Positions 3,701-62,893 of a DNA stretch of 64,000 nt are shown here, one piece after another. Positions within the stretch are counted from its first letter, which is position 1, and every line of letters begins with the position of its first letter. Origin of the DNA: an uncultured Flavobacteriaceae bacterium (lineage in GTDB: Bacteria; Bacteroidota; Bacteroidia; Flavobacteriales; Flavobacteriaceae); the NCBI GenBank assembly GCA_947486785.1, contig CANKUU010000010.1, forward strand, positions 61,272-125,271, in the 5' to 3' direction. The notes under the pieces were generated by a model, which was given only the letters and a program-made list of their open reading frames with translations, did no database searches and was not told where the DNA came from. The position numbers and the translations under genes were made by a program.

Positions 3701-4009
3701 AATATTTCAAATGACGAACAAGGAAAATTTTGGTCCGATAAAGAAATGTCAGTATCTATAACCTGCCCTAATGGAATTTTGGGCTCGCTTTACATTCGTT
3801 TTGATGATTCTCAAAAACTTTCAAGAGAAGGCATTATAGAATTTGAAGGCAGAAAAATAAGATTAGAACCCCATGCAGAAAAAGAAGGAAAATGGATTAA
3901 ATTTCATGTAATGAGAGAAGATAGCAATGATGGCGTATTGCTATTGAAAATGAAAGCCACATCTGAATCCAATTTAAAAGTGAGTCAACTAATTCTTGAA
4001 ACAAAATAA
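764..4009 (+). CDS. Glycoside hydrolase family 2-like protein, secreted, with extra C-terminal domain
   Basis: Signal peptide; IDLSGAW sugar-binding domain start; VFLRG, NHVRFHSWCPPE, YGNHPSF...IGNE (acid/base) and AHEIG (probable nucleophile) motifs. Confidence 0.8.
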   Translation: MKIKSFQTICCALIMLAGTYSLNAQQQTIDLSGAWQVSLETKSTATIEKTKGTIQLPSSLAEQGFGIQTQGADTGVLTPKYKYIGTALYSKTIYIPKSWENKAIELFLERVLWSSKVSVDGHLISEQDALGTPHIHSLGKLSPGKHTLSIAVNNEMIHNIGDKGHAYSDFTQGIWNGMVGKLELRMNPDIRIKQIRTFPILDKEQVKIELLIQGIKKTKAKVAITIMEVGQTKTILETTRKVDVIDGEHTVELFLNTENRLKKWNEFKPVTYLLKTELTTKKNKALKETEFGYLEIGHNGTQITINDKPVFLRGNLDCVHFPLTGYPSTKVADWERIFKKHKEYGLNHVRFHSWCPPEAAFKAANRIGIYLQVEASVWIDSWMNTDMSAIGRPEMDTKGRPVGLGKDASRDAFVIKEMNRVVNTYGNHPSFTMFCIGNELGSSNFDVTKEWISELKAHDPRRLYAASTARTITESDDYNVTHYIPNIGHTRGLRGARTDWDFEEVYAQMNIPILAHEIGQWPVYPSWKEIDKYTGVFQARNFQQFKAVAEKNGIAEQAEDFKMASGALNQIMYKYEIESFLRTKSCAGIQLLSMQDYQGQGEALVGWLDTFWDSKGITTSEKFKQHSNETVPLLRIPKFIWSSNETLSAKIQVSHYGQHPIKSGTVLVTVQNDTGNKVFEKRMNPIDFSVGSLMNIGTIQVPLSKITKAERLSITLTVENTDFKNSWNIWVYPKALPKLDFKDNPDVLISTKMDAKTITALEKGKKVLLLAYNLGTEKNSVPVNYYPLYWSLTFFPGQGKTSIGMLFNKEHEVFKYFPTDFHSDWQWQPFEKNTKAFVLNSLPKSYKPLAQVIDDFHLNNKQGTIFELAVGKGKLLVCGYNLQQLNHPAANQLEYSLLKYLKSDSFKPTTQVSQKFLKELFPLDPLAENVTTVKKSGNTLLKVLCGGATQKKGSEIPWKKSNDSILVQAKNTDYKIISGNISNDEQGKFWSDKEMSVSITCPNGILGSLYIRFDDSQKLSREGIIEFEGRKIRLEPHAEKEGKWIKFHVMREDSNDGVLLLKMKATSESNLKVSQLILETK

Positions 4010-4379: not shown

Positions 4380-4405
4380 TTCGACAAAAAATTTTAATTG
4401 TCGAA
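4380..4405. promoter_or_regulatory. Inverted repeat TTCGACAA-N10-TTGTCGAA upstream of susC, candidate operator
   Basis: Perfect 8-bp arms read directly in the 850-bp GH2-susC intergenic region. Confidence 0.35.
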
Positions 4406-4859: not shown

Positions 4860-7800
4860 ATGAAAACAATTTTTAAAAAATTAGGCTTCTTGATACTACT
4901 TATGTCTATAGTTTCATTACAGGCCCAAGAGAAAGCAATTACTGGCGTTGTTAGTGATGCAGAAACAGGTATGCCTGTACCCGGCGCTAGTGTTGTGGTA
5001 AAAGGAACTTCTAAAGGAGTCGCTACAAATTTTGATGGCGAATTTGAAATTACCCTAGATACTGACGAAACCTTAATTATTAGTTATCTGGGTTTTAAAC
5101 CAAAAGAAATAACGCCAGCAGGCAACACCAATTTAACAATTTCTTTAGAGCCTGATGCAGCGCTGTTAGATGAAGTAGTAGTAGTTGGTTATGGTACGCA
5201 AAAAAGAAAAGAAGTCTCTGGTTCTGTAGCACAAGTAGCTGGAGAAAAGTTGACTCAGGCACCCATTTCAACCTTAACAAATTCTCTCACAGGTCGCTTA
5301 CCAGGCTTAACGATTAATCAACGTTCCGCAGAACCAGGTCGTGAAAATTCACAAATTTTAGTTCGTGGCGTAAGTACTTTGGGCTCAAATACCGCTCTCG
5401 TAGTAATTGACGGTGTGGCAAATGTAGATGGTTTGGATAGATTAGATCCTCAAGATATTGAGAGTGTAACCATACTAAAAGATGCAGCTGCAGCAATTTA
5501 TGGCGCGCAGGCAGCTAATGGAGTTATTTTGGTGACTACAAAAAGAGGGAAATCTGGCAAGCCTCAGTTTACCTATAATTTAAATTCAGGAATGAATTCA
5601 CCCATTTCGCTACCAGACTTAGCCGATGGCCTTGAATATGTTACTATGATTAACCGAATTGCTTGGCGAGCGTCAGGATGGGATCCAGACTTTACGCCAA
5701 CATTTAGCGATGAAGAAGTAGAAAATATACGCAACGGAACAACACCTACGTATGAATGGAGAGATGCTGCTTACAGAAAAACTAGTTTTCAGACATCTCA
5801 TAATATATCCGTTCGTGGAGGTAGCGAAACATTTAGATATTTTACCTCAGCACGTTATTTGAATCAAAATTCTATTTTTGAAGGTGATGATATTGGAAAA
5901 AACAGACAATACAATATTAGAACTAACTTAGACTTAGCCGTAAACAAAAACTTGGATTTAGGTCTTGATATCGCATTACGGCAACAAAATGTATCTAGTG
6001 CATTTCAAAGAAGAAATGCCGTTTTAGTTAATTCACAATTGACACCACCAATTCTACCTCGGTTCATCAACGACGACATAAGATTTCCTGCAGCTGGTAG
6101 AGCAAGTCAAAATCCGTATTCCATGATACGTGAAGGCGGTTATGAAAACAATGAGCTACGTAATTTGAGTGCTAATCTAAAATTCAATTATAAGATTCCA
6201 AGTTTAGAAGGTTTAGCAATAGGTGGTTTTGTATCTTATGGTGTAAATACAGATTTTGACAAACAATTTCAAACGCCATGGTCATTCTATTTACCTAATA
6301 CGGATGACCCAACAGGAGATCCAATCAGACAACAAGCTGGTATCATACGTTTAGACCAATCCTATTCACGGGCAAATATACTCACATCAAATTTCAGAAC
6401 AACATATCGCAACTCATTCGGAAATCATAATTTAGACGTCTTACTTCAAGTAGAGAAGCAAACACAAAAATATGATGAGTTTAGGGCGACTAATGATAAT
6501 TTTTTATCTAGAGCATCAGACCAACTAAACTCGGGCAGTAGGGATAGATCAGATTCTGAGGTTGCTGGATTAGGACTTGAGGCGGCTCGCATCGGATATT
6601 CTGGCCGATTAAATTACAATTATAAAGAGAAGTATATTGCTCAACTATTATTCAGATATGACGGTTCGGAGCGTTTTGCCCCAGGTCAACGCTTCGGTTT
6701 TTTCCCAGGAATGACAGCTGCCTGGGTAATTTCTGAGGAGGATTTCTTAAAAGATAATTCTACTATTAATAGCTTAAAACTTAGGGGTTCTTGGGGGCAA
6801 TTAGGAAACGATAGAATACCTGCCTTCAACTATCTATCACGATTTAGGTTTGCGGGTAACATTGTTGTCAATGGCAATACAACACCTGGCGTTGTCGAAG
6901 AAGGTATTTCAAACCCTAACGTAACTTGGGAGGTTGCTGAAACGATAAACTTGGGTATTGAAGCAACACTTTTTAGAAATCATTTAACGATCGAAGCAGA
7001 TGTTTTTGATACACAAACTAAAGACATTTTAGCAAGTCCGTCAATTACTTTACCACAATATACGGGTATAACACCCCCACTTCAAAATATAGGCATTGTT
7101 CAAAATAGAGGTTTTGAGTTTTCAACGGCATATAGAGAGAGTATAGGAGAATTTAATTTTACAATAGGTGGTAATGTTGCCTTCTCAAGAAATAAAGTTG
7201 TCTTTGTTGATGAGGTACCTTTCGACGAAGAATACCAAAATCAAACAGGTAAACCATTAGGCTCTGGACTTATTTATGACGCAATAGGTATCTTTAGAAC
7301 GCAAGAACAACTAGATAATCTTCCTACTAGACCAGGAGATGCCTTAGGTAGTGCGATAATTAGAGATACTAATGGAGATGGCGAAATTACAATAGCCGAT
7401 AGAATTCGATTAGATAAAACTGCCAACCCAGAGTGGGTATATGGTATTACTACGAATGTCTCTTACAAAAACTTCGATTTAAACCTATTATGGCAAGGCG
7501 CTTCTGGCGGGATAAAAACAATTTCTAATATCTTTGGCCCAGGCAATAACAATTGGTCTTATTTTGCGAGAGAAACATGGGCTCCTGATAACGTTGACGC
7601 TGCATTACCAGCACCAGGACAATCAGAAGACACAAATATCTACAAAATAGAATCTAACTACCTAAGACTAAAAACTTTAGAAGCTGGTTATACGTTTCCA
7701 ACTAAAGCTATTAACGCTATTGGTTTAGATAACGTAAGGTTATATGTTAGTGGTTTCAATGTAATCACTTTTGATGCAAATTCCCATATAGGAGGTACAG

Positions 7801-7880
7801 ACCCTGAACAGAACGACTCGAGAGGTTGGGACTTCCCTAATTTAAGAACCTGGAATCTAGGTTTTAATATATCCTTTTAA
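4860..7880 (+). CDS. susC: SusC/RagA TonB-dependent outer membrane transporter
   Basis: Signal peptide, CarboxypepD-like N-domain (ITGVVSD...TNFDGEF), LDEVVVVGYG, DIESVTILKDAAAAIYGAQAANGVILVTTKRG plug, RYDGSERF, C-terminal Phe. Confidence 0.97.
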   Translation: MKTIFKKLGFLILLMSIVSLQAQEKAITGVVSDAETGMPVPGASVVVKGTSKGVATNFDGEFEITLDTDETLIISYLGFKPKEITPAGNTNLTISLEPDAALLDEVVVVGYGTQKRKEVSGSVAQVAGEKLTQAPISTLTNSLTGRLPGLTINQRSAEPGRENSQILVRGVSTLGSNTALVVIDGVANVDGLDRLDPQDIESVTILKDAAAAIYGAQAANGVILVTTKRGKSGKPQFTYNLNSGMNSPISLPDLADGLEYVTMINRIAWRASGWDPDFTPTFSDEEVENIRNGTTPTYEWRDAAYRKTSFQTSHNISVRGGSETFRYFTSARYLNQNSIFEGDDIGKNRQYNIRTNLDLAVNKNLDLGLDIALRQQNVSSAFQRRNAVLVNSQLTPPILPRFINDDIRFPAAGRASQNPYSMIREGGYENNELRNLSANLKFNYKIPSLEGLAIGGFVSYGVNTDFDKQFQTPWSFYLPNTDDPTGDPIRQQAGIIRLDQSYSRANILTSNFRTTYRNSFGNHNLDVLLQVEKQTQKYDEFRATNDNFLSRASDQLNSGSRDRSDSEVAGLGLEAARIGYSGRLNYNYKEKYIAQLLFRYDGSERFAPGQRFGFFPGMTAAWVISEEDFLKDNSTINSLKLRGSWGQLGNDRIPAFNYLSRFRFAGNIVVNGNTTPGVVEEGISNPNVTWEVAETINLGIEATLFRNHLTIEADVFDTQTKDILASPSITLPQYTGITPPLQNIGIVQNRGFEFSTAYRESIGEFNFTIGGNVAFSRNKVVFVDEVPFDEEYQNQTGKPLGSGLIYDAIGIFRTQEQLDNLPTRPGDALGSAIIRDTNGDGEITIADRIRLDKTANPEWVYGITTNVSYKNFDLNLLWQGASGGIKTISNIFGPGNNNWSYFARETWAPDNVDAALPAPGQSEDTNIYKIESNYLRLKTLEAGYTFPTKAINAIGLDNVRLYVSGFNVITFDANSHIGGTDPEQNDSRGWDFPNLRTWNLGFNISF

Positions 7881-9660: not shown

Positions 9661-9693
9661 AATATGGTGGGGTTTTTAACTCCGCCATATTTT
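9661..9693 (+). terminator. Stem-loop after susD (terminator/attenuator)
   Basis: AATATGGTGGGGTT-TTT-AACTCCGCCATATT followed by TT; stem includes G-U pairs. Confidence 0.6.
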
Positions 9694-9706: not shown

Positions 9707-12700
9707 TTGAAAACAAAAACATTTATTTACGTATTTACGGTTTTATCTGCACTATCCTGTGTAGATAAAAAAGAGGATATTTCAAAAAAACAAGATCCTA
9801 AGAAGCAGGTTGGTTTAGATAGTAAGACCACTACATCTTTATTTACCCTATTAAACCCAATAAATACCGGAATTAATTTTATTAACAAACTCACAGAAAC
9901 CGCTGATATGAACGGCTTCTTTTATGAGTATTACTACAACGGTGCAGGTGTAAGTATAGCTGATATTAACAACGATGGTTTAAAAGATATTCTATTTATT
10001 TCTAACCTTAGAAAAAATAAACTTTACCTAAACTTAGGAGGCCTAAAGTTTAAAGATATTACTAAAGAATCTGGACTATCTGCATCAACTGGATTTAGAA
10101 CTGGCGTGACTAACGTGGATATCAATCATGACGGCTTAATGGATTTCTATATTTCTAAATCAGGAAAGTACAAGAACCCTGATAAAAGAAGAAACGAACT
10201 ATGGGTAAACCAAGGTATTGACGATTCTGGAATTCCTCTATTTAAAGAGCAAGCAGCTAGCTATAACCTAGATAGCGATATGTACTCTACACAAGCCTCT
10301 TTTTTTGATTACGATAGAGATGGTGATTTAGACATGTTTTTAATAAATCATTACATAACGCCCTTTAAGTATAGCGAGGTTGACCAATTGATAAAACAGA
10401 AAGGAAAACTAACCGGTGACCGATTATTTGAAAACGTTAATGGAAAATTTAAAGACATTACCCAACTGGCAGGCCTTACCAATACTAATAGACTAAGTTA
10501 TGCTTTAGGGGTATCAATAGGCGATGTGAATAATGATGGCTGGCCAGATGTATATGTTGCAAATGATTATGAAGGCAAAGATTACCTATACATTAACAAT
10601 AAGAACGGCACCTTTACAGACATTGCTAACACAGCCATGCAACACACTTCTTTCTATTCTATGGGCACCGATGTTGGCGACTTAAATAATGACGGATGGC
10701 TTGATATTATTACCTTAGATATGATGGCCGAAGATAATTATACTGCAAAGACGAGCATGAGCGCAATGAACACCTCTAAATTCGAAAGTGTGGTAGATAG
10801 AGGTTTGGGCTATCAATACATGTACAATACGTTGCAGATAAATAATGGTACTGTGGCAAAAAATAACTTTCCAGTATTTTCCGATGTGGCTCAACTGGCA
10901 GGAATAGCTACAACAGATTGGAGCTGGGGACCATTAATTTTTGACATGGACAACGACGGATTAAACGATATATTTATTTCTAATGGCATTAAAAAAGACT
11001 TTAGAAATAACGATTTTATATTAAAGCAGCAGCGCAGAAAAGATTCTATTAAAACAACAGATCGGTCTGCATTTATAAAAGAGGTATTACAAGAAATGCC
11101 CGAACGAAAGAAGCAAAACTATTTTTTTAAAAACAACGGCGACCTATCATTCAGTAATATGAATAACAAATGGGTGCAAGATATACCAAGCAGCTCTAAC
11201 GGAACATCTTATGCAGATTTGGATAATGATGGAGACCTAGAAATAATAGTAAACAATGCAGACGATGTATCTTTAATCTATAAAAATAATAGTAGAGAAT
11301 ATGACCTTGGAAATTATGTGAAATTTAAATTTAAAGGATCTTTAAAAAATCCAGCTGGTGTTGGCGCACGTGTGGCTCTAATATTTAGTGATAATATCCA
11401 GGTTAAAGAATTTTTCTATTCAAGAGGATTTCAATCAACTGTAGGCAATGGTCTTCATTTTGGACTCGGTCAAAAAGATACTATTCCTACCATTAAGGTT
11501 ACCTGGCCAGATGGTAAAGAGCAAATACTCAAGAATATGGTTGGCAATCGTGAAATTACTCTTGATTATAAAAATGCGGAACCATCCAACAACAATGAAA
11601 CAAAAGAATCTTTAATAACATTTAAAACCAATGGTGTATTAAATAACTCGATTACATGGAAGCATAAAGAAAATACGTTCGACGACTTTGAACGAGAATT
11701 GCTTCTACCTCATAAAATGTCGAGACTTGGCCCTGCACTAGCTGTTACAGATTATAATGGCGATGGTCTTGATGATGTATTTATAGGTGGGGCAAAAGGA
11801 CAAGCCCCAGTACTTTACCAGCAAACAACTAACGGTTCTTTTAAACCTGTGCAACAAAGTGTTTTTACAAATCAATCTGACTATGAAGATGTAAACGCAT
11901 ATTTTTTTGATATGGATCAAGACGGAGACGAAGACCTCTATATCGTTAGCGGAGGAAATGAATCTTCAGTAAACTCAGAACGTTATGAAGATCGAATTTT
12001 CGAAAACAAATCAGGTACTTTTCAACTAGTAAAAAAAGCACTTCCAAAAATATATGTAAGCGGGTCTATCATTGTACCTTTTGATTATGACGGAGATAAT
12101 GACCTTGATATATTTGTAGGAGGCAGGCAATTTCCTGGCAGGTACCCAAGCCCTGTTAGTAGTTATTTATTACGAAACGATAGTAAGCCGAATGAAATAC
12201 TATTTAAAGAGGTTAGCGCCAAAAATTTTCCTGATCTAAAGAATTTAGGCATGGTAACAGATGCCATTGCCATCGACATAGATCATAATGGCGCCAAAGA
12301 CCTAATAGTAGTGGGTGAATGGATGCCAATACGTTTATTTTTAAATAACAACAATACTTTTAAAGACGCCAGTAGCAGCTTTGGATTTGATAATACCACA
12401 GGATGGTGGAACACTATTGAGGCAGGAGATTTTGATAAGGATGGAGATTTAGACCTTGTAGTAGGTAATTTAGGTCTCAATTACAAATACAAGGCCAGTC
12501 AAGAAAAGTCATTCAATATTTATAGTGATGATTTTGACGATAATGGTTCATTTGATATTGTGCTCGGATATTATCAAGGTAATAACATATATCCTCTAAG
12601 AGGTCGCCAATGTTCATCCGATCAAATGCCTTTTATTAAAAAGAAGTTTCCGAGTTATGACGCTTTTGGAAAAGCATCCTTAGCGCAGGTCTATGGTAAC

Positions 12701-13120
12701 GAAAAATTAGATGGTGCAATAAAATATAAGGCCAAAACATTTGCATCAACATACTTTGAAAATACAGGTAAAAACAATTTCAAAGCAAAGCCTTTGCCAA
12801 ATTGGGCTCAAAAAACTTCAGTAAATGCAATAGTCTTAGAAGATTTCAATAATGATGACCATCTTGATATGTTGCTAGCAGGAAATCTGTACAATTCTGA
12901 AGTAGAAACCCCAAGAAATGATTCAGGATTTGGCACCTTACTATTTGGAGATGGCAAAGGGGCATTTCGCTCCGAAAAATTACTTAAAACCGGATTATAT
13001 ATTAATGGTGAAGTAAAAAACATAGCCAAGTTAAAAATTTCAAATAATCGAAGCGCGCTATTAGTGGCTAAAAATAATGATAGTCTTCAATGTCTAATTT
13101 GGAACAACAATGACAACTAA
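9707..13120 (+). CDS. ASPIC/UnbV (CRTAC1-like) FG-GAP/VCBS repeat lipoprotein, paralog 1
   Basis: TTG start, lipobox LSC, many DxNxDGxxD Ca-binding repeats, RGFQS...HFGLG ASPIC/UnbV segment, ETPRNDSG near the C-terminus. Confidence 0.88.
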   Translation: MKTKTFIYVFTVLSALSCVDKKEDISKKQDPKKQVGLDSKTTTSLFTLLNPINTGINFINKLTETADMNGFFYEYYYNGAGVSIADINNDGLKDILFISNLRKNKLYLNLGGLKFKDITKESGLSASTGFRTGVTNVDINHDGLMDFYISKSGKYKNPDKRRNELWVNQGIDDSGIPLFKEQAASYNLDSDMYSTQASFFDYDRDGDLDMFLINHYITPFKYSEVDQLIKQKGKLTGDRLFENVNGKFKDITQLAGLTNTNRLSYALGVSIGDVNNDGWPDVYVANDYEGKDYLYINNKNGTFTDIANTAMQHTSFYSMGTDVGDLNNDGWLDIITLDMMAEDNYTAKTSMSAMNTSKFESVVDRGLGYQYMYNTLQINNGTVAKNNFPVFSDVAQLAGIATTDWSWGPLIFDMDNDGLNDIFISNGIKKDFRNNDFILKQQRRKDSIKTTDRSAFIKEVLQEMPERKKQNYFFKNNGDLSFSNMNNKWVQDIPSSSNGTSYADLDNDGDLEIIVNNADDVSLIYKNNSREYDLGNYVKFKFKGSLKNPAGVGARVALIFSDNIQVKEFFYSRGFQSTVGNGLHFGLGQKDTIPTIKVTWPDGKEQILKNMVGNREITLDYKNAEPSNNNETKESLITFKTNGVLNNSITWKHKENTFDDFERELLLPHKMSRLGPALAVTDYNGDGLDDVFIGGAKGQAPVLYQQTTNGSFKPVQQSVFTNQSDYEDVNAYFFDMDQDGDEDLYIVSGGNESSVNSERYEDRIFENKSGTFQLVKKALPKIYVSGSIIVPFDYDGDNDLDIFVGGRQFPGRYPSPVSSYLLRNDSKPNEILFKEVSAKNFPDLKNLGMVTDAIAIDIDHNGAKDLIVVGEWMPIRLFLNNNNTFKDASSSFGFDNTTGWWNTIEAGDFDKDGDLDLVVGNLGLNYKYKASQEKSFNIYSDDFDDNGSFDIVLGYYQGNNIYPLRGRQCSSDQMPFIKKKFPSYDAFGKASLAQVYGNEKLDGAIKYKAKTFASTYFENTGKNNFKAKPLPNWAQKTSVNAIVLEDFNNDDHLDMLLAGNLYNSEVETPRNDSGFGTLLFGDGKGAFRSEKLLKTGLYINGEVKNIAKLKISNNRSALLVAKNNDSLQCLIWNNNDN

Positions 13121-16100
13121 GATTCTACATATAATTGGTATTTGCTCTCTTTTAATGGTTTTAAGTGCTTGTAACAAAGCTAAAAACCAAAAACTTTTTG
13201 TTCCTATTTCCGAAAAAGATAGTGGCATTTCGTTTTCAAACAACCTAATAGAGAGTGATACACTAAATTATTTCTTATACAAAAATCTATATAATGGGGG
13301 TGGTGTAGCAATTGGTGATATAAACAATGATGGTCTTCAAGATATTTATTTTACGGGTAATATGGTACCCAACAAGCTATACCTAAATAAGGGAAATCTA
13401 CATTTTGAAGATATCTCCGAACTAGCAGGTGTATCAGGTGATTCTAGATGGATGACTGGTGCAACTATGGCAGACGTGAACCAAGATGGATTTTTAGATA
13501 TTTATGTATCCGTTGCGGGGGTTTGGAATACACCAAAAAACATACTTTACCTGAACGATGGAAACAAAAATGGAGTTCCAACTTTTACCGAGTCTGCAGA
13601 AAGTTTAGGTGTTGCCGACCTTGGAAATAGTACTCAAGCCACATTTTTTGATTACGACCTTGATGGAGATTTAGACTTATATGTGGCCAATTATCCTGTG
13701 GTAGATATAAAAACTGGCGTTATGAATTATCGTTTTTATATGGATCACGTACATAATGGAGTGAGTGATCATTTATACAAAAATGAAAATGGATTATTTA
13801 TTGATGTTACTGAACAAGCAGGTGTGCTAAGCTATGGACTATCTTTAGGTGCCTCTGTAGCCGACTTCAATGATGATGGCTGGCCAGATCTATATGTTTC
13901 AAACGATTTTGCTACACCAGATTATTTTTATCTAAACAATGGTGACGGTACGTTTTCTGAACATTCAAAAGAAACCACTTCGCACACGTCTTTCTTTGGT
14001 ATGGGCATCGATGCAGCCGATATAAATAATGATGGATTAATGGATTTTTTACAGCTTGACATGACTCCTGAAGACAATTTTAGGTCTAAAGCTAATATGG
14101 GTAGTATGGACATACCTGCTTTTTGGGCTATGGTAAATAATGGAATGCACTATCAATACATGAAAAATTCACTTCAACTGAATAATGGCAATAATTCGCT
14201 TGGACAACCACAATTCTCCGAAATATCTAAACTAAGTAACCTTGCCCTAACAGATTGGAGTTGGGCACCGCTTATTGCAGATTTTGATAACGATGGATGG
14301 AAAGATATATTCATTTCAAATGGGTCTCGTAGAGAGTTAAACAATAAAGATTTTTTTAAAGAAATGAATAAAGATAAGGAACAGAATAAACACCTCTTAT
14401 CTTGGGTAAAAAAAATGCCCGAAGAAAAAATACCTAATTACGCTTTTAAAAATAAAGGAGGTATTGATTTTGAAAATATCGCACCCCAATGGGGGCTTGA
14501 TTTTAAAGGATGGACAACGGGTGCTTCTTATGCAGATTTAGACAATGATGGAGACTTAGATATTGTGATCAACAATGTAGATCAAACAAGCATGGTTTAC
14601 GAAAATCATTCAACAGATCGCAAAAATTCAAACTCAATTAGTATCGTATTAAACGGCTCAGACCAAAATAAATTTGGAATAGGAAGTAAAGTAAGCCTTT
14701 ACAATGATGGTAAGCAGCAATATCAAGAACTAAATTTAAGCAGAGGTTTTCAATCTTCTGTAGCTCCAACGATTCACTTCGGCTTAGGAAAAAACAAAAT
14801 TATAGATTCTCTAAGAATCCAATGGCAAGACGGCTCTAGTGAATTATTAAAATCTATTGAAGCGAATAAAAAACTTACCATTAGCCATAAAAATGCTAGT
14901 AAAACCAATAATCAAACAAATACGCATCAAAAAAAAGACCTATACTTTAAAGACATAACCGACACTATTGGTCTTAGCCATAGACATGAAGAAAACTATT
15001 TTGATGATTTTGAACATCAAATTTTATTACCTCACAAAATGTCTCAATTTGGTCCAGCATTGGCAGTAGGTGATATAAATGCAGATGGTTTAGATGATTT
15101 CTACGTAGGGGGTGCAAAAGGGTTTAAGGGAGAAATTTTTATGCAAAAAGCCAACGGAACATTTAAGAACGTAACCCAACCTATTTTTGAGGAACACAAA
15201 ACTCATGAAGATGTAGACGCAATTTTCTTTGATGCTGATGGTGATAACGACCTAGACCTCTACATCGTTAGCGGTGGTAACGAATGGAAAGAAGGAGACC
15301 CTTTCTACCGCGATCGGCTTTATGAAAATAATGGAAAAGGACTATTTACAGAGGCTGAAAATGCTCTTCCATTAATGCATGAGAGTGGATCAGTTGTTAA
15401 ACATGCAGATATTGACGGTGATGGAGACCAAGACCTATTTGTAGGCAGCCGTTTACTTCCTCGCAAATACCCCTTGTCTGGCAAATCTTATATACTTAGA
15501 AACGATAGTAGAAAAGGGCAGATAAAATTTACAGATATTACCATGCAAACAGCACCAAAACTATCCTCGGCAGGTATGGTAACAGATGCTATTTGGGCGG
15601 ATATTGATACTGATGCCGATTTAGATTTAATACTCACCGGAGAGTGGATGCCAATTACAATTTTCATTAATACTGACCAACACTTTAGCGATGAAACAGA
15701 ATCATATAATCTTCAACATCAAACAGGATGGTGGAACTGCATAGATGCACAAGACTATGATGGCGATGGCGATTTAGATCTTGTAGCGGGAAATTTGGGT
15801 GAGAACTACAAATACACCGCATCTAAAAATGAACCTTTCAGTATTTATGTAAATGATTATGATAAAAATGGGGCGATGGACATCGTACTTTCATATATTC
15901 AAAACGGAGAAGAATATCCACTTCGCGGCAAGCAATGTTCCTCTCAACAAATACCCGTAATTTCTATAAAGTTTAAAGATTATAACTCCTTTGCAAAAGC
16001 AAGCCTAGCCGATGTGTACTCAAAACAGTCTCTGTTAGAATCGAAACAATTTAAGGCTACCAATTTCGCTACAAGTTATTTCGAAAATAAAAATGGAACT

Positions 16101-16439
16101 TTTAAAATAAGACCCCTAGAGAAAATGGCACAAATTAGCTCGGTAAATTCTATTCATTCAGAAGATATCAATGGAGATGGAATATTAGATCTAATTTTAG
16201 CGGGAAATCTTTATGGTTCGGAAATAGAAACACCCAGAAATGATGCCTCTTATGGACTAAGCTTACTAGGCGATGGAAAAGGTTTCTTTGTAACACAACC
16301 AGCTATAGAAAGCGGTTTACTGATAACAGGTGAAGTACGCCAAATTAAGCCAATAAAGGTATCTAATAGAAAAAAATCACTGCTAATAGGTAAAAATAAT
16401 AGTACGCTAACCATCTTAGACATAGATTCTAAACTTTAA
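13110..16439 (+). CDS. ASPIC/UnbV (CRTAC1-like) FG-GAP/VCBS repeat lipoprotein, paralog 2
   Basis: Lipobox LSAC; same repeat architecture and shared blocks with paralog 1 (LLPHKMS, YPLRGxQCSS, ETPRND); 11-bp overlap with paralog 1. Confidence 0.88.
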   Translation: MTTKILHIIGICSLLMVLSACNKAKNQKLFVPISEKDSGISFSNNLIESDTLNYFLYKNLYNGGGVAIGDINNDGLQDIYFTGNMVPNKLYLNKGNLHFEDISELAGVSGDSRWMTGATMADVNQDGFLDIYVSVAGVWNTPKNILYLNDGNKNGVPTFTESAESLGVADLGNSTQATFFDYDLDGDLDLYVANYPVVDIKTGVMNYRFYMDHVHNGVSDHLYKNENGLFIDVTEQAGVLSYGLSLGASVADFNDDGWPDLYVSNDFATPDYFYLNNGDGTFSEHSKETTSHTSFFGMGIDAADINNDGLMDFLQLDMTPEDNFRSKANMGSMDIPAFWAMVNNGMHYQYMKNSLQLNNGNNSLGQPQFSEISKLSNLALTDWSWAPLIADFDNDGWKDIFISNGSRRELNNKDFFKEMNKDKEQNKHLLSWVKKMPEEKIPNYAFKNKGGIDFENIAPQWGLDFKGWTTGASYADLDNDGDLDIVINNVDQTSMVYENHSTDRKNSNSISIVLNGSDQNKFGIGSKVSLYNDGKQQYQELNLSRGFQSSVAPTIHFGLGKNKIIDSLRIQWQDGSSELLKSIEANKKLTISHKNASKTNNQTNTHQKKDLYFKDITDTIGLSHRHEENYFDDFEHQILLPHKMSQFGPALAVGDINADGLDDFYVGGAKGFKGEIFMQKANGTFKNVTQPIFEEHKTHEDVDAIFFDADGDNDLDLYIVSGGNEWKEGDPFYRDRLYENNGKGLFTEAENALPLMHESGSVVKHADIDGDGDQDLFVGSRLLPRKYPLSGKSYILRNDSRKGQIKFTDITMQTAPKLSSAGMVTDAIWADIDTDADLDLILTGEWMPITIFINTDQHFSDETESYNLQHQTGWWNCIDAQDYDGDGDLDLVAGNLGENYKYTASKNEPFSIYVNDYDKNGAMDIVLSYIQNGEEYPLRGKQCSSQQIPVISIKFKDYNSFAKASLADVYSKQSLLESKQFKATNFATSYFENKNGTFKIRPLEKMAQISSVNSIHSEDINGDGILDLILAGNLYGSEIETPRNDASYGLSLLGDGKGFFVTQPAIESGLLITGEVRQIKPIKVSNRKKSLLIGKNNSTLTILDIDSKL

Positions 16440-16533: not shown

Positions 16534-18990
16534 ATGAAGCAAAAAGTTAAAACAATACAAAACAAGAACCTCATACTATTGGTTATATCATTGTTGTTTT
16601 TTAGCTCGTTGAAAGCCCAAGATAATGACATAAAACTTTGGTATGAAACGCCGGCAGATTTACCCATGTTTGGCATTAAGGATACAGTTAAAGATTCTGG
16701 TGATATTATTGCCGGGGTAATGTCTATGCCAGATCTATGGCGTGACAACCCCAATTGGTTATCGGCGCTACCTCTTGGAAACGGTTCATTGGGAGTTATG
16801 GTTTTTGGTGGAGTTAAACGTGAGAGAATACAGCTGAATGAAGAAAGTATGTGGTCAGGAAGCCCACAAGATAGTGACAACCCTGAAGCCTATAAACACC
16901 AAGCTAAAATAAGAGAATTACTTTTTGAAGGAAAATACAAAGAGGCAACAGCACTTACTCATAAAACACAAATTGCAAAAGGACTAGGTTCGGGTAGAGG
17001 AAATGGAGCAACTGTACCTTTTGGATGTTTTCAAACCATGGGAGACTTATGGCTCGATTTTGAAAATAAGGCAGATTTTACCAACTATAGAAGAGAACTA
17101 GACCTCGAAGATGCTGTTGTAAGAATAACGTATACCCAAAATAATATCAATTATAAACGAGAATTTTTTATTAGTACACCCGATCAAGTACTTGTAGGTC
17201 GTTTTACGGCTGACAAGCCAGGAAGTATCTCTTTTAGTGCTACTATGAGCCGACAAGAGCGTTTTACAACAAATACTCAAGATAATGAACTTGTTATGTT
17301 TGGTAGCTTGAGTGATGGCAAAGGGGGCAACGGACTAGAATATATGACCAGATTAAAAACCTTAACTAAAAATGGAAAAATAACATACGGAAACCAAAAT
17401 ATCACCATAAAAAATGCAGATGAAGTAACCTTAATTCTTTCGGGCTCTACTGATTACAAACTAGAATATCCGCATTACAAAGGGCGTGATTATAAAAAAA
17501 TCACTAAAAATAATATTGAAAAAGCAGCTGTTACCCCATGGAAAACCCTTCTCGATAGACATTTGAAAGAATATCAACCCTATTTTAATAGGGTAACTTT
17601 TGATCTAACACCCAATACAATTATTCCTACACCCACAGATAAACGATTAGCGAACTTTAAAAAAGATAAAAAAGACCTACGATTACAAGAACTTATTTTT
17701 CATTACGGGCGCTATTTATTAATAGCTGCATCAAGACCTGGCACCTTACCTGCCAATCTGCAAGGTATATGGGCAGATAAAATACAAACGCCTTGGAATG
17801 GTGATTATCATACAGATATAAACCTAGAAATGAATTATTGGCTCTCTGGACCTACTAATTTATCTGAAATGCAACTGCCCATGTTCGATCTTATACAATC
17901 ATTGGTCGCTCCTGGAAAAAGAACTGCAAAAATTCAGTATCAAAAAAATGGATGGGTGGTTCACCCAATTACAAACGTATGGGGGTATACTTCCCCAGGT
18001 GAAAATGCCACTTGGGGTATGCATACCGGCGCAGGAGCATGGATTAGCACGCATATTATGGAGCACTACCGATTTACTGGAGACACTAACTTTCTTAAAA
18101 AAATGTATCCTGTGTTAAAAGAGTCTACGTTATTTTATATGGACTGGTTAGTAGAAGATCCGAAGAGCGGCAAATTGGTTTCAGGACCCGCAGTTTCGCC
18201 CGAAAACACCTTTATTGCACCAGATGGAAGCCACAATCAAATAAGTATGGGCCCTGCACATGACCAACAAGTAATATGGCAATTGTTTACCGATTTTATT
18301 TCAGCATCAAAAATTTTAGGTAACCACAATAAATTTTCAAAACAAGTAGCAAAAGCTCGCGAAAAATTAGCTGGCCCTAAAATAGGTTCAGATGGTAGGC
18401 TTATGGAATGGGCTGAAGAATTCCCAGAAGTAGAACCAGGCCACCGACACATGTCTCATTTGTTTGCTCTACATCCTGGAAACCAAATCAACTGGAATGA
18501 AACTCCTAAATTGGCGAAGGCAGCAAAAAAATCTCTAGATGTTAGAATACAAAATGGGGGCGGCTATACCGGGTGGAGTACTGCATGGCTAATTAATCAT
18601 TATGCTCGTTTGCATGAAAGTGAAAAGGCGAAAGAAAGTTTAGATATAATTATTTCTAGAAGTACGTCAACAAATCTTTTTGGTCAACATCCTCCTTTTC
18701 AAATTGATGCAAATTTTGGCACCACAGCCGGAATGGCTGAAATGCTTTTACAAAGCCACTCTGGACTTATTGAACTACTTCCAGCGCTTCCTGTTTCCTG
18801 GGCTAACGGCACCGTTAAAGGCCTAAAAGCAAGAGGTGGTTATACCGTTGATATGTTATGGATGAATGGAAAACTAAAAAAAGCTACTATTCTTGCTAAA
18901 AATAAAGGCAAACACCAAATAAAATATAAAAATACCCTGCGCGAAATATCTTTAGAAGCTGGAGAAATTTATGAATTTACTTTAGAGTAA
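16534..18990 (+). CDS. GH95 alpha-L-fucosidase / alpha-L-galactosidase
   Basis: ALPLGNG, IQLNEESMW, YGRYLLI, PANLQGIW, YHTDINLEMNYW, SPEN, HRHMSHL, FQIDANFG, ELLPALP, GLKARGG; signal peptide. Confidence 0.93.
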   Translation: MKQKVKTIQNKNLILLVISLLFFSSLKAQDNDIKLWYETPADLPMFGIKDTVKDSGDIIAGVMSMPDLWRDNPNWLSALPLGNGSLGVMVFGGVKRERIQLNEESMWSGSPQDSDNPEAYKHQAKIRELLFEGKYKEATALTHKTQIAKGLGSGRGNGATVPFGCFQTMGDLWLDFENKADFTNYRRELDLEDAVVRITYTQNNINYKREFFISTPDQVLVGRFTADKPGSISFSATMSRQERFTTNTQDNELVMFGSLSDGKGGNGLEYMTRLKTLTKNGKITYGNQNITIKNADEVTLILSGSTDYKLEYPHYKGRDYKKITKNNIEKAAVTPWKTLLDRHLKEYQPYFNRVTFDLTPNTIIPTPTDKRLANFKKDKKDLRLQELIFHYGRYLLIAASRPGTLPANLQGIWADKIQTPWNGDYHTDINLEMNYWLSGPTNLSEMQLPMFDLIQSLVAPGKRTAKIQYQKNGWVVHPITNVWGYTSPGENATWGMHTGAGAWISTHIMEHYRFTGDTNFLKKMYPVLKESTLFYMDWLVEDPKSGKLVSGPAVSPENTFIAPDGSHNQISMGPAHDQQVIWQLFTDFISASKILGNHNKFSKQVAKAREKLAGPKIGSDGRLMEWAEEFPEVEPGHRHMSHLFALHPGNQINWNETPKLAKAAKKSLDVRIQNGGGYTGWSTAWLINHYARLHESEKAKESLDIIISRSTSTNLFGQHPPFQIDANFGTTAGMAEMLLQSHSGLIELLPALPVSWANGTVKGLKARGGYTVDMLWMNGKLKKATILAKNKGKHQIKYKNTLREISLEAGEIYEFTLE

Positions 18991-19031: not shown

Positions 19032-20270
19032 TTAGTACTCTTTTAAATCGGCACTCATACCAGGTTCTTGAGGAACTTGATATTTAGAATTTTTTATTCG
19101 TACAGGATATTTAAAATAATCTTTTAAATGTGGAATATGTTCCAAAAGTAATGCTGGATGCCCTAAAGTAATATGATTAAAAAGCACCAAATGTTGGTGA
19201 ATTTGGCCCATATCGCCAACATGAGGAACTACTGGAACATTAAATTTTCTAGACAATAAACTGATAAGGATAAATTCGGATACACCCCCTACTCTAACGG
19301 CATCTACTTGATTGAAAGATACACAGCCCGATTGTAAAAAGTTTTTAAAAATTATTTTATTAGGTACGTGCTCACCTAAAGCTAATTTTACATCTACTTT
19401 TTGTGCTAAGGTTACATGAGCAGCTACATCATCAGGATGTGTGGGTTCTTCAATCCATAATGGATTTAATTTCTTTAGCTCTTCACACATAAAGATGGCC
19501 TCAGGCAAATTCCATTGCTGATTAGCATCGAACATAATCGTTGCGTTGTCACCCGCAATTTTTCGTACTAGCTCTGCCCTTCTTAAATCTACATTTGAAT
19601 CCTTTGAACCTACTTTCAATTTCATTGCCGTAAAACCCTGACCCATAGCAGATTTTATATTTTCAGCTACTTGGCTATCACTATAGTTAAACCAGCCTAT
19701 AGAGGTGTCATACCCAGGATAACCCTCTGCTAATACACGCTTTCGCAGTTCTTCACCAGAGCGTTGTGCTTCTAATAACTTTATAGCTTCTTGTTTGGTT
19801 AATACTTCCTCAAAATAAGAAAAATCTAAGGTATTAATTAAAGCTTCAGGCGAAAGATCAATCAATAGCTTCCAAAGTGGAACACCATGCGCTTTTGCCC
19901 ATAAATCATAACAGGCATTTACTACGGCAGCTAACGCTAAATGTATGACGCCTTTGTGCGGCCCAAGCCAACGAAAATTAGGGTCATCTGCCATTTTTTT
20001 ATAGCATGCTCCAAAATTAGCCATCAGTTCGTTAATCTCCTTGCCTTCAATATGAGTTACTAAATAGTCTATAGCCTGGCAAACGAGTTGATTACCATGT
20101 CCTAAGGTAAAAGCTAATCCAATACCTTCTAACTTTCCATCAGTTTGCAAATGACATACTGAGTATGCATAAATTGGGGTACTATGCACAGCATCTGAAC
20201 CTGCACCACCCTTTAATTCGAAACGCTTATCCGAAGCGAATCCTTTTATTATCTTAACTAATTTAATCAT
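19032..20270 (-). CDS. fucD: L-fuconate dehydratase-like enolase-superfamily enzyme (FucD/ENOSF1 type)
   Basis: GSDAVH, RWLGPHKGVIHLALAAVVNA.YDLWAK, KLKVG, DANQ.W, WIEEPTHPDD, GEH, PHVG match FucD/rTS-beta as I recall them. Confidence 0.82.
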   Translation of the reverse strand: MIKLVKIIKGFASDKRFELKGGAGSDAVHSTPIYAYSVCHLQTDGKLEGIGLAFTLGHGNQLVCQAIDYLVTHIEGKEINELMANFGACYKKMADDPNFRWLGPHKGVIHLALAAVVNACYDLWAKAHGVPLWKLLIDLSPEALINTLDFSYFEEVLTKQEAIKLLEAQRSGEELRKRVLAEGYPGYDTSIGWFNYSDSQVAENIKSAMGQGFTAMKLKVGSKDSNVDLRRAELVRKIAGDNATIMFDANQQWNLPEAIFMCEELKKLNPLWIEEPTHPDDVAAHVTLAQKVDVKLALGEHVPNKIIFKNFLQSGCVSFNQVDAVRVGGVSEFILISLLSRKFNVPVVPHVGDMGQIHQHLVLFNHITLGHPALLLEHIPHLKDYFKYPVRIKNSKYQVPQEPGMSADLKEY

Positions 20271-20393
20271 GATAGTTTTACTTTTTTACCTGAGCTATAT
20301 TTTAAATTATTCAAAAACGCTAAGCGTATTTTTTAGAAAACATAGCTACTTCATATTGTTTTTGAAATAAAAGTGCATCTTTATTTTTTTTCT

Positions 20394-21905
20394 TTACTCT
20401 ACTGCTGCCTTATAAAGTCCAAATTCTGCAATTCTAGGGCTTTTTCTAGCTTCTAAAATAGTTAACCTTGTCTTTTTAGCCTTAACTGGATCAAAGCGAA
20501 GTAACCTTTTATAACCAATAGTAGTTCCTTCACATATAAGCATCCACTTTCCATTTACCTCAGCTTCAAATTTAAATCGCTCTACACGTTGCCCTGTGGT
20601 GATTTGTTCTTGAAGAAGTAAACGATCAAAAGTTTTTGCTTTTGGTAATACAATACTAAGCTCTAGCTGGGTAGAATTTTCTGTTGCTAACCAAGCGGTT
20701 TTAATATTTTTATCAAAGAGTACTTTGGCATTGCTTGGTATGCCAGTGCTTTTAACGATAGCTTTACTTGCTAAATTATGTTCGAATGTTTTTTTTATTC
20801 TATGATTCCATGCCTTTAAAGTTGCTACATCTCTATCTTGGATAAGGCCTCTAGTATCAGGAGGAATATTTAATAATAATACAGAATTTTTTCCAACCGA
20901 ACTGTAATAAATATCCATAAGCTTGTCCACACTTTTAACCGCTTTATCTTGGTTTTTATGATAAAACCAACCCGGGCGTATAGAAACATCAACCTCTGAA
21001 GGATACCATACAAGTCCGCTTGCATCGTACAATTGTTCTCTACTTCCGATATCTGCAGCCATAAAATCTAATACTGGCCTAAAAGTACCTGCTGCCTGTT
21101 GAGATGCTGCTGCGATAGCATCCTCTTCTTGGCTACTTGTAGGTACTACGCTCCATTCGGTATCCCTTCCATAACCAGATTCAGTTCCAACCCAGCGTAC
21201 ATCTGGCCCTATAACTGCTATCACAGCATTTGGCTGAAGTTTACGAATGGTGGAGTAATACCGTTGCCAATCATATTCTTGTTTTTTTCCATTAGGGCCT
21301 TCTCCGTTGGCGCCATCGAACCAAACCTCAGCAATGTCGCCATATTGAGTGAGTAATTCGGTCAATTGATTTATAAAAAAATCATTGTAAGCCTGTGTTC
21401 CATACACTTTACTATTTCTATCCCATGGAGATAGATAAATGCCCAATTTAATATCATACTTTTTACAGGCCGCTGCTAATTCTTTAACCACATCGCCGTT
21501 TCCATCTTTCCAAGGGCTACTTTTTACCGAATGATTTGTGAATGCACTAGGCCATAAACAAAAGCCGTCATGATGTTTGGCGGTAAGAATAATCATTTTC
21601 ATACCCCCTTCTTTGCATGCTTTTACCCATTGCTCGGCATCTAATTCGGTCGGATTAAAAAGAGCAGGATCTTCTGTACCATCTCCCCATTCACGGTCTG
21701 TAAAGGTATTTATACCAAAATGTAAGAACGTAGTAAGCTCTAACTCTTGCCAGGCTAACTGTTTTGCGCTGGGGCGAACCATAGCAGCTTTCTCAATAAT
21801 TGTTTCACGACTGTCTTCTGGCAGTATTTTAGTTACTCCTACCTGTGCTTTTATATGCGACAAACAGATGAAAAAAAAGATAAAAAAAAGCAATTTATGT
21901 GTCAT
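20394..21905 (-). CDS. GH29 alpha-L-fucosidase (subfamily B-like) with C-terminal F5/8-type C/CBM32-like domain
   Basis: FLHFGINTF, LTAKHHDGFCLW, YLSPWD, VWFDGA (nucleophile), RWVGTESG, DVSIRPGWFYH. ATG at 21905 gives a clean signal peptide (the track uses TTG 21929). Confidence 0.93.
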   Translation of the reverse strand: MTHKLLFFIFFFICLSHIKAQVGVTKILPEDSRETIIEKAAMVRPSAKQLAWQELELTTFLHFGINTFTDREWGDGTEDPALFNPTELDAEQWVKACKEGGMKMIILTAKHHDGFCLWPSAFTNHSVKSSPWKDGNGDVVKELAAACKKYDIKLGIYLSPWDRNSKVYGTQAYNDFFINQLTELLTQYGDIAEVWFDGANGEGPNGKKQEYDWQRYYSTIRKLQPNAVIAVIGPDVRWVGTESGYGRDTEWSVVPTSSQEEDAIAAASQQAAGTFRPVLDFMAADIGSREQLYDASGLVWYPSEVDVSIRPGWFYHKNQDKAVKSVDKLMDIYYSSVGKNSVLLLNIPPDTRGLIQDRDVATLKAWNHRIKKTFEHNLASKAIVKSTGIPSNAKVLFDKNIKTAWLATENSTQLELSIVLPKAKTFDRLLLQEQITTGQRVERFKFEAEVNGKWMLICEGTTIGYKRLLRFDPVKAKKTRLTILEARKSPRIAEFGLYKAAVE

Positions 21906-21934
21906 TTCAATTTTATTTAATTCGTACAAATTTA

Positions 21935-23002
21935 TTAGAGTGATACACCGCCAATATTATTTGAAATATAAGCCGCTTCTACAAGTTTCATAGTATTATA
22001 GGCATCTTCAGTACTATTATTTAAGGGTATACTACTATCATTCATATGGTTTTGAAGTACGGCCATAGATCCAATAAAAGCATGAGGAAACCATCCGCCT
22101 ACAAGCGGCAATTCTTTCCAAGCAGTAGCTTTACCTTCATTTAGTAAACAGTACTCAAATAGTGGTGGCAAACCCTTTGGATAATTTAGCGAAAGTCCTA
22201 TTCTAATCTTTATAGCCCCTTTAGTACCCTCTATTTTTAAATAAGACTCTTGCTTATCATGACCGTAAACATGACCATGATTAGTTAGTATTCTTGCTTG
22301 TAAAAACTTGGAGTAATGAAGAATCATCGTAGATCGGGTCTGAGAAAGGTCTGGTGTATTTGGATGTGGAATGGTACTTGCCATTATTTGATTTGGATTA
22401 CCTAAAAATGAGCGTATGACATCCAAATAATGTATACTATGATACAAAATCTCTACCCGCGGCAAACCTTTTAAAAAATCCCATAAATGCCATGGTGTGT
22501 GAACACAAACTTTTAGTTCAATATCAAAAACTTCACCAAGTAAACCCTGGCTAATCATATCTCTTGCAGCTATACAATAGGGAGCATATCGAAGTTGAAA
22601 ATTAACAGCAGATTTTAAATTTTTAGTTCTACAGATTTTGAGAATTTCCTCACATTCTTCTAAATTATTACCCATCGGTTTCTGAATAAGAACACCTGAA
22701 TTATCTGGAATTTGCCTAAGAATAGCACTAATGTGGTTTGCAGGCACCGCTAAATCGTAAATAGCATTCTGTGCTTGTGCATCTATGATAAGCTTATCTA
22801 GAGTTTCGTATGCTTGACCAACTTGGGCAAAATCATTTACCAAACTATTCGCCTTAGATACATCTACATCAAATACTCCTAAAACCGAGTAATTGGCAAG
22901 TTTATATGCGGGTAAATGGGCATCTCTTACAATACCACCAGCTCCAATTATAACAATGGGTCTTGGTTTTTTAGGCTTTGGTATTTGTTGTTTTATTCTC
23001 AT
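21935..23002 (-). CDS. Gfo/Idh/MocA family NAD(P)-dependent oxidoreductase
   Basis: Rossmann IIGAGGIV..AHLPAY, QKPM (EKP-like), VNFQLRY, HSIHYLD; no signal peptide; ATGA overlap with the upstream gene. Confidence 0.85.
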   Translation of the reverse strand: MRIKQQIPKPKKPRPIVIIGAGGIVRDAHLPAYKLANYSVLGVFDVDVSKANSLVNDFAQVGQAYETLDKLIIDAQAQNAIYDLAVPANHISAILRQIPDNSGVLIQKPMGNNLEECEEILKICRTKNLKSAVNFQLRYAPYCIAARDMISQGLLGEVFDIELKVCVHTPWHLWDFLKGLPRVEILYHSIHYLDVIRSFLGNPNQIMASTIPHPNTPDLSQTRSTMILHYSKFLQARILTNHGHVYGHDKQESYLKIEGTKGAIKIRIGLSLNYPKGLPPLFEYCLLNEGKATAWKELPLVGGWFPHAFIGSMAVLQNHMNDSSIPLNNSTEDAYNTMKLVEAAYISNNIGGVSL

Positions 23003-23649: not shown

Positions 23650-23655
23650 TCTTTC

Positions 23656-25254: not shown

Positions 25255-25255
25255 A

Positions 25256-51590: not shown

Positions 51591-51649
51591 TATATATTTT
51601 TAATTGATAGTTTTTAGCTAAGGTTAAAGGGTTAAATACGAAATTATTT

Positions 51650-59804: not shown

Positions 59805-59816
59805 TTAAGATTACTA

Positions 59817-61358: not shown

Positions 61359-61381
61359 TGGAACTATTCAAATAATTGTAA

Positions 61382-62854: not shown

Positions 62855-62893
62855 TCTTATTGCCATCCATTAATAACCCACTTTTTGGCTAAA

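Follow-up and report, generated by a model that had tools for sequence, protein, structure and literature searches.

Two tandem genes, called copy 1 and copy 2 below, follow susC and susD in a stretch of 64,000 nucleotides (64 kb; the window, meaning the whole of the DNA analysed) from an uncultured marine Flavobacteriaceae bacterium (GenBank assembly GCA_947486785.1, contig CANKUU010000010.1). They encode paralogous lipoproteins of about 1100 residues, each built of two beta-propellers separated by an UnbV_ASPIC domain. Sequence comparisons place the pair as a conserved two-gene orthogroup of a known family, tied to fucose loci. The reading preferred here, to which about even weight is given, is that both proteins may be non-catalytic, substrate-adapted accessory surface partners of the SusCD importer.

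Architecture of the tandem propeller lipoproteins

The open reading frames (ORFs) and domains are listed in Table 1 with their neighbours. The original prediction had drawn, between susD and a gene of glycoside hydrolase (GH) family 95, two paralogous ASPIC/UnbV beta-propeller lipoproteins with an 11-bp gene overlap and common non-repeat blocks; this description is borne out throughout, with exact coordinates. The overlap reads ATGACAACTAA at 13110-13120, and copy 1 starts 77 nt past the susD stop codon. The two proteins are 46% identical across 1095 aligned residues and share the blocks FDDFE(R/H)..LLPHKMS, YPLRG(R/K)QCSS and ETPRND. FG-GAP_3 is matched with E values of 3e-72 (copy 1) and 2e-75 (copy 2) and UnbV_ASPIC (PF07593) with 4e-18 and 7e-21, above the 23.4-bit cutoff in both. 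Pfam and NCBIfam returned nothing beyond FG-GAP_3, FG-GAP and UnbV_ASPIC for either copy, and no catalytic domain. The earlier mention of dozens of DxDxDG repeats was overstated: 14 loops of this type, arranged 7+7, occur in each protein, giving 28 in the pair.

Table 1. Features of the locus, in window coordinates
Feature	Position	Strand	Basis or detail
GH2-like glycosidase with a signal peptidase I (SPI) signal peptide, heading the locus	764..4009	+	Pfam Glyco_hydro_2_N/_C
SusC-like TonB-dependent transporter, 1006 residues, without N-terminal STN extension	4860..7880	+	TIGR04056, E 3e-261
SusD-like lipoprotein, 577 residues	7896..9629	+	SusD_RagB E 1.7e-49, SusD-like_3 E 1.8e-22
RNA hairpin, 14-bp stem followed by AUUUUCGUU, between susD stop and copy 1 start	9661..9691	+	
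Copy 1 ORF, TTG start, 1137 residues	9707-13120	+	
Copy 1 lipoprotein signal peptide, lipid-anchor Cys18	9707..9760	+	MKTKTFIYVFTVLSALSC, TTG counted as Met
Copy 1 hydrophilic tether, 26 residues	9761..9838	+	VDKKEDISKKQDPKKQVGLDSKTTTS; predicted local distance difference test (pLDDT) <50 at residues 18-40
Copy 1 N-terminal 7-loop FG-GAP/VCBS propeller, residues 45-530	9839..11296	+	DSSP of model
Copy 1 UnbV_ASPIC beta-sandwich, residues 536-620	11312..11566	+	PF07593 E 4.3e-18, residues 551-618
Copy 1 C-terminal 7-loop propeller, residues 678-1137	11738..13117	+	Model
Copy 2 ORF, ATG start, double-propeller lipoprotein, 1109 residues	13110-16439	+	Pfam, alignment to copy 1
Copy 2 signal with lipobox Cys21, 7-residue tether NKAKNQK, UnbV_ASPIC at residues 523-590			MTTKILHIIGICSLLMVLSAC
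GH95 (alpha-L-fucosidase/galactosidase family), SPI signal	16534..18990	+	Glyco_hydro_95_cat E 3e-167
Convergent fucose operon	19032..25888	-	Pfam matches

Both proteins begin with a lipoprotein signal ending in cysteine (...VLSALSC in copy 1, ...MVLSAC in copy 2). TTG is the sole start of copy 1 that retains this signal, since the next in-frame ATG (Met67) would remove it. The tether that joins the lipid-bearing cysteine to the first strand differs between the copies and does so consistently, with 21-27 residues in the nine measurable orthologues of copy 1 and 6-7 residues in the ten measured orthologues of copy 2; this conserved difference suggests that the two proteins stand at different heights above the membrane. 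Acidic residues follow the cysteine in copy 1 (CVDKKED), for which the Bacteroidota surface-export motif is plausible on sequence grounds. None follows it in copy 2 of the window (CNKAKNQK), and several copy-2 orthologues carry acidic residues near the cysteine (CEVS.., CDSSKE.., CELKE.., CDQDN..).

Copy 1 was modelled with AlphaFold2 from a 78-sequence alignment, and secondary structure was assigned by DSSP. The full-length model reaches a pLDDT of 91.9 and a predicted template modelling (pTM) score of 0.91, and the C-terminal half modelled alone reaches 93.9 and 0.94. In the N-terminal propeller the Ca loops start at residues 86, 138, 201, 273, 325, 413 and 504, and helical insertions occupy residues 337-374 and 427-471; in the C-terminal propeller the loops start at residues 682, 735, 793, 857, 908, 942 and 1046, and a five-helix insertion lies at about 958-1004. 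Between the beta-sandwich and the second propeller runs a conserved linker motif, H.EN.F.DF..E.LLPHKMS. Each DxDxDG loop joins two consecutive strands of the model as a hairpin. In integrins, hairpins of this type are structural and lie on the lower face of the propeller, away from the ligand site. The Ca-dependent binding put forward in the original prediction is therefore doubtful.

CRTAC1 is a secreted animal matrix protein with a C-terminal EGF-like part and, to our knowledge, has no transferable biochemical activity. In its murine form (PDB 9etn) it is the first match of whole copy 1 in a Foldseek search of the PDB (E 8e-26, target-normalised TM 0.73) and, from the model, the only specific PDB neighbour of either half, the others being binding or scaffold propellers. 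For the C-terminal half, CRTAC1 again comes first (E 1.9e-14), followed by KICSTOR, the LGI1 EPTP domain, Bap1 and integrin alpha. Sequence searches of the PDB agree, with 9etn as sole specific match (E 1.7e-11 for one sequence, 5.9e-31 for a profile); sequence and profile searches together list only CRTAC1, integrin alpha chains (alpha-V and alpha-IIb, matched by the C-terminal profile at E 3e-4 to 1e-3) and one secreted esterase at E 0.03. The likeness of DDB1, SF3B and CPSF in the whole-protein Foldseek search was dismissed as generic to multi-propeller proteins (TM 0.11-0.22).

As in CRTAC1, an FG-GAP-type propeller with Ca2+ loops is followed by an UnbV_ASPIC domain, which in copy 1 aligns to CRTAC1 residues 363-507. 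Homology covers the N-terminal two-thirds; the whole architecture is unlike that of CRTAC1. Identity is only 14-17%, the bacterial forms are lipoproteins, and a second propeller of 460 residues replaces the tail. The three insertions (337-374, 427-471 and 958-1004) remained unaligned to CRTAC1 in the PDB profile search. The integrin alpha FG-GAP propeller likewise has seven blades and DxDxDGxxD hairpins. It carries Ca loops in only three or four blades, unlike the proteins described here, in which all seven blades of both propellers have one and which have no beta-subunit partner.

Family, orthogroups and fucose loci

A scan of 1.84 billion cluster representatives returned 48,978 proteins at E <=1e-3 and 4,111 at E <=1e-30, family clusters being counted at 50% identity. 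Nearly all of the top 150 matches are about 1100 residues long and cover almost the whole query. Word-indexed searches gave at least 8,000 matches, with source names that include ‘VCBS repeat-containing protein’ and ‘enediyne biosynthesis protein E4’. The literature searched on ASPIC/UnbV, FG-GAP, VCBS and CRTAC1 in connection with SusC, SusD or polysaccharide utilisation loci (PULs) held nothing relevant on bacterial function, in line with the earlier statement that no biochemical function is established in bacteria. The main text of a North Sea PUL catalogue makes no mention of these propeller proteins (PMC6298971).

Genomic context was sampled in 79 loci (L-numbered below) from species-representative genomes, 69 of them from Bacteroidota; the sample was seeded with copy-1 peptides and is biased to copy-1 relatives. 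The proposed tie to SusCD holds in this sample: in at least 25 of the 69 Bacteroidota loci SusC and SusD are encoded immediately before the propeller gene, and in about nine others this gene follows on the susCD strand after a few more ORFs. The majority of the family members sampled stand as single genes behind susD. An extracytoplasmic function (ECF) sigma factor and a FecR anti-sigma factor form a pair 5′ of susC in at least 11 loci. Downstream neighbours vary (GH95, PAP2, sulfatase, GH20, GH123, or nothing on the same strand), PAP2 being found in 4 of 63 loci. Single-propeller forms of 567-657 residues, without SusCD, occur in other phyla (L070-L074). At non-orthologous loci, identity to the window protein is about 47-52% for the propeller protein (median about 49%, copy 1), 29-38% for SusC (about 34%) and 22-35% for SusD (about 34%).

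A separate clade of the family is encoded four or five genes 3′ of susD (L008, L009, L011-L013, L018, L020 and L037), with conserved ORFs of about 875, 600, 370 and 480 residues in the interval. From a Pfam tally, the products of these intervening genes seem to include FAD-dependent oxidoreductase and GH109-like proteins, and the genes may represent a non-hydrolytic sugar pathway.

In a FastTree phylogeny of 80 family members, for which local support values alone were computed, copy 1 groups with the first genes of L001, L002, L003, L016 and L021, and copy 2 with the second genes of L003, L016 and L021, each with 100% local support. The copy-2 clade branches outside a 33-row clade that contains copy 1 together with many single-gene forms. 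The duplication is thus old, and a recent tandem duplication was rejected. The copy-2 orthogroup comprises 14 clusters at 60% identity or more, after which identity falls to 55%. The 64-kb window holds no further paralog of either copy.

The two paralogs occur together in at least eight other loci. SusC, SusD, copy 1 and copy 2 are all co-orthologous in L003, L016/L081 and L021, and the same gene order is found in L082, L083, L085 and L086, while L081 has the layout of L016. L085 is syntenic with the window: it carries GH2, a 1006-residue SusC, SusD, the pair, a GH29 that bears an F5/8C domain, and GH95, and TetR-SSF lies close by. In L083, TetR-SSF-RhaM-sulfatase-Gfo and three GH29 genes come directly after the pair, so that the convergent fucose set of the window lies directly behind the copy-2 orthologue; most of this set is also present in L081/L016. 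Overall, 9 of 11 distinct related loci have GH29, GH95 or genes of fucose catabolism within 10 kb, which upholds the tie of this orthogroup to fucose-glycan genes. The two exceptions are L086, where two sulfatases precede the contig end, and L082, which encodes a PL9-like beta-helix protein. The latter, a TARA ocean scaffold, carries the four-gene module followed at 13933-16311 by a Pel9A-like beta-helix protein (type 9 of the polysaccharide lyases, PL) and no fucosidase, so the fucose link of the orthogroup is not absolute.

A Saprospiraceae chromosome (L002/L080) carries both orthologues on the same strand of a single locus, where GH29 and GH95 genes occupy the roughly 19 kb that separate them. 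There, a 1285-residue gene product fuses GH29, F5/8C and GH95 domains (L080 13390-17247), and a neighbouring GH95 is split into ORFs of 494 and 265 residues (L002 18405-20711), which may reflect a frameshift or a pseudogene.

These arrangements bear on the heteromer of the original prediction, here taken as an obligate heterodimer in which neither paralog works without the other. In its favour, the 11-bp overlap points to translational coupling, the order copy 1 then copy 2 is kept in all the loci listed above that carry the four-gene module (L003, L016/L081, L021, L082, L083, L085 and L086), and the tether lengths are complementary. An obligate dimer is nevertheless unlikely, since each copy is also found by itself or at a distance from its partner: the copy-2 orthologue of L084 stands alone directly after susD on a 23-kb contig, copy 1 is alone within the 10 kb examined in L001, the Saprospiraceae genes are far apart, and single genes make up most of the family members sampled. 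That the two copies cooperate is plausible in view of their co-occurrence in other loci and of the overlap of their stop and start codons.

Paralog divergence and possible roles at the cell surface

The two copies diverge unevenly. In the N-terminal propeller, members of an orthogroup share an identity of 0.73-0.75 and the paralogs one of 0.44; its blade-6 insertion (427-471) gives 0.69-0.75 and 0.21, and the C-terminal propeller 0.60-0.63 and 0.49. These values point to a strongly constrained, paralog-specific surface on the N-terminal propeller. Loop faces were assigned from DSSP strand order and from the integrin rule, by which Ca hairpins mark the lower face. On this basis, family-wide conservation is 0.72 in the predicted Ca hairpins, 0.66 in strands and 0.45-0.46 in the predicted upper-face loops, the lowest class. 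Within an orthogroup the predicted upper-face loops come close to the scaffold in conservation (0.63 against 0.76), and between paralogs they have diverged (0.30 against 0.58). Among 41 fixed paralog differences, 24 fall in predicted upper-face loops and 36 in the N-terminal half.

Across 149 diverse representatives, 90 positions are at least 95% invariant; nearly all are Asp, Asn, Gly or Phe residues of the repeats, and none is His, Glu, Lys, Arg or Cys. Several positions, including H313, K348, H653, E655, R807 and E871, are conserved at 90% in the closer 78-sequence set, so this invariance test is not absolute. A family-conserved tryptophan motif immediately precedes an inner strand in each propeller (WSW 405-407 and WW 900-901) and may mark a candidate binding site.

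A non-catalytic partnership with SusCD is favoured because the scaffold is conserved while one face varies, because the orthogroup tracks a substrate class, because the structural neighbours are all binding proteins, and because no His, Glu, Lys, Arg or Cys reaches 95% invariance. A precedent also exists in the Ca-type propeller of Vibrio cholerae Bap1/RbmC, which binds a tetrasaccharide at the centre of the propeller face, cradled by four tryptophans (PMC10102183; bioRxiv 10.64898/2026.08.03.742583). Bap1 (PDB 6mlt) is a bacterial Ca-loop propeller that ranks tenth in the Foldseek search with the C-terminal half (E 4e-8). The match is weak (TM 0.38) and is used as an analogy only, as Bap1 is an 8-bladed secreted adhesin without a SusCD link.

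In such a role, the propeller lipoproteins would catch a fucose-containing glycan at the cell surface, or bring it into position there, and pass it to SusD and SusC, after which the exo-glycosidases with SPI signals (GH2, GH95 and GH29) and the fucose operon would finish its breakdown in the periplasm and cytoplasm. The 14 DxDxDG hairpins of each protein would serve to stiffen the propellers, and the ligand site probably lies elsewhere. Specificity would reside on the face opposite the Ca hairpins, within the loops and the helical insertions that the N-terminal propeller carries. As old, specialised paralogs, the copies would probably act at different heights or steps, copy 1 with its tether of about 25 residues as a distal catcher and copy 2, seven residues from the membrane, as a membrane-proximal partner.

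Several points weigh against this role. The family is better conserved than SusC and SusD, which is atypical of glycan-binding proteins of the SusE/F type and, judged from sequence identity, would fit a conserved chemistry or a protein partner. Many relatives lie in SusCD cassettes without a recognisable carbohydrate-active enzyme (CAZyme) on the same strand, leaving room for the propeller protein itself to be an enzyme. A surface-export signal is not evident in copy 2 of the window, as no acidic residue follows its lipid-bearing cysteine. The assignment of an upper face rests on strand order in the model and on likeness to integrins. Divergence of the loops is partly expected, faster sites diverging more with time, and since the relative rate of the loops rises only from about 1.6 to 2.2, this line of evidence is suggestive and not decisive. 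Two other explanations, an enzyme and a structural subunit, are retained on account of the conservation above that of SusC and SusD, the CAZyme-free cassettes and the motif of copy 2, the first being regarded as quite improbable and the second as unlikely.

In the enzymatic explanation, one or both proteins would be the missing surface enzyme of the locus, a new Ca2+-dependent propeller CAZyme, possibly a lyase or another endo-acting enzyme, that cuts the fucosylated polymer before import. Apart from the pair, the locus encodes no lipoprotein CAZyme and no endo-acting CAZyme, all of its GHs having SPI signals. The frequent absence of any CAZyme from related cassettes and the strong conservation of the family would also fit, as would the orthogroup-conserved helical insertions, which in both propellers lie on the predicted upper face, the side that holds the active site in propeller enzymes. 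The top 50 Foldseek PDB matches contain no PL or GH propeller, either for whole copy 1 or for its C-terminal half, and the nearest structures are all binding or scaffold proteins. Unlike the known propeller CAZymes (PL11, PL22, PL24/25, PL42/GH145 and others), the pair has no sequence or fold match to a catalytic family. The cryptic enzyme of the original prediction thus finds no support in fold searches, Pfam or residue conservation. Its more specific form, in which the lipoproteins would be the catalytic surface component and found a new Ca2+-dependent CAZyme class with the orthogroup-specific insertions of the N-terminal propeller as active site, appears very doubtful.

Alternatively, the proteins could be substrate-independent structural subunits of SusCD (a cap, a spacer or an assembly factor) that bind SusC or SusD rather than the glycan. 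Such subunits would explain a conservation above that of SusC and SusD in loci that differ so widely in the CAZymes they hold (GH95, PAP2, sulfatase, GH20, GH123 or none). They would also fit the rigid two-propeller body with its confident inter-domain arrangement (pTM 0.91) and the strict inheritance of the SusC, SusD and propeller genes as one module. Against a role independent of substrate, the orthogroups follow the type of substrate, fucose loci accounting for 9 of the 11 cases here. The constrained, paralog-specific surfaces of the N-terminal propeller fit ligand specialisation, although co-evolution with SusC and SusD would look alike.

Finally, the lipid anchors could sit in the inner leaflet of the outer membrane, so that the proteins point into the periplasm and work once import is complete, perhaps by holding the oligosaccharide for periplasmic glycosidases. 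The lack of acidic residues after the cysteine of copy 2 in the window and the 7-residue tether that holds this protein at the membrane are compatible with such a location. It is highly improbable in view of the acidic residues near the cysteine in copy 1 and in several copy-2 orthologues, and of the gene position after susD, which is usual for surface proteins.

Neighbouring genes, known systems and significance

With adjacent susC and susD genes and with GH2, GH95 and GH29 nearby, the locus has the composition of a PUL (adjacent susC/susD plus CAZymes). The GH2-like protein scores 792 bits against the NCBIfam model of BT4151-type exo-beta-1,4-galactosidase, under the 1500-bit cutoff, and its gene also lies 5′ of susC in the syntenic locus L085. 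The SusD lipoprotein reads CSEEALD from its lipid-bearing cysteine onward. By signal prediction, SusD and the two propeller proteins are the sole lipoproteins of the locus; GH2, GH95 (N-terminus ...SSLKAQDN) and GH29 each have an SPI signal and are therefore presumably periplasmic exo-enzymes. The convergent fucose operon is headed by TetR and further encodes an SSF symporter, a RhaM-like mutarotase, a Gfo/Idh/MocA oxidoreductase, GH29 with an F5/8C domain and an enolase-superfamily dehydratase.

The hairpin between susD and copy 1 has a minimum free energy of -21.3 kcal/mol (z-score -4.07), and none of 200 shuffled sequences folds equally well. It is absent from the list produced by the terminator consensus scan; the sigma-70 and terminator consensus scans of the window were uninformative. 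A search for sequencing runs that contain this DNA returned none.

Orthologues of the window SusC are 49-61% identical in L001, L002, L003, L016 and L021, and they measure 1116-1155 residues in the loci with sigma/FecR genes. Compared with most orthologous loci, the window lacks both the sigma/anti-sigma pair and the STN extension of SusC. FecR, in most cases with an ECF sigma factor, is encoded at L003, L016/L081, L021, L082-L084 and L086, all with a SusC of 1116-1155 residues, unlike the 1006-residue SusC of the window. L085 resembles the window in having neither an STN-extended SusC nor sigma/FecR genes, and L001 encodes a regulator of the IclR type in their place. Within the 850-bp stretch that precedes susC (4010-4859) there is no ORF and, by tblastn, no sigma or FecR remnant, so a degraded regulator was discarded as an explanation of this gap.

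Other genes of the window, all on the minus strand, were recorded in passing. At 48576-52864 and 27746-32128, a 1004-residue second DnaE-like polymerase and an adjacent Y-family polymerase with IMS domains resemble a mutagenesis cassette of the ImuB/DnaE2 type, and the main DnaE (1460 residues) carries an N-terminal RNase_T exonuclease domain. A 587-residue protein (44108-45871) combines a GxDLY domain at its N-terminus with two SGNH/GDSL esterase domains, an architecture that resembles a carbohydrate or sialate O-acetylesterase. A 457-residue protein with two 3-keto-disaccharide hydrolase (PF06439) stretches (53571-54944) is unlinked to the fucose locus. Two methylmalonyl-CoA mutase subunits stand beside a carboxyltransferase and a biotin carboxylase (56279-62866), a set of the propionyl-CoA carboxylase type that could process propionate if fucose is degraded via propanediol.

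Among known systems, SusE and SusF occupy the same gene position, and theirs is the role proposed here for the pair. They too are lipoproteins encoded directly 3′ of susD, often as paralogous pairs and without a catalytic domain. SusE/F proteins consist of tandem beta-sandwich domains similar to carbohydrate-binding modules, whereas the proteins described here have a different fold, no SusE/SusF Pfam match and a much larger size (about 1100 residues), and vary far less from locus to locus than SusC and SusD do.

In environmental Bacteroidota, few genes are found behind susC and susD more often than those for double-propeller CRTAC1-like lipoproteins. To what is known of this family, the pair adds an orthogroup tied to fucose, a rule for tether length, and a divergence placed in the N-terminal propeller, especially in residues 427-471. 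It thereby offers an unusually well-defined entry, the likely substrate class being narrowed to fucose-containing glycans. Once known, the role of the pair would supply a missing part of the glycan-uptake model by which marine and soil metagenomes are interpreted, and it might inform that of the equally obscure vertebrate CRTAC1.

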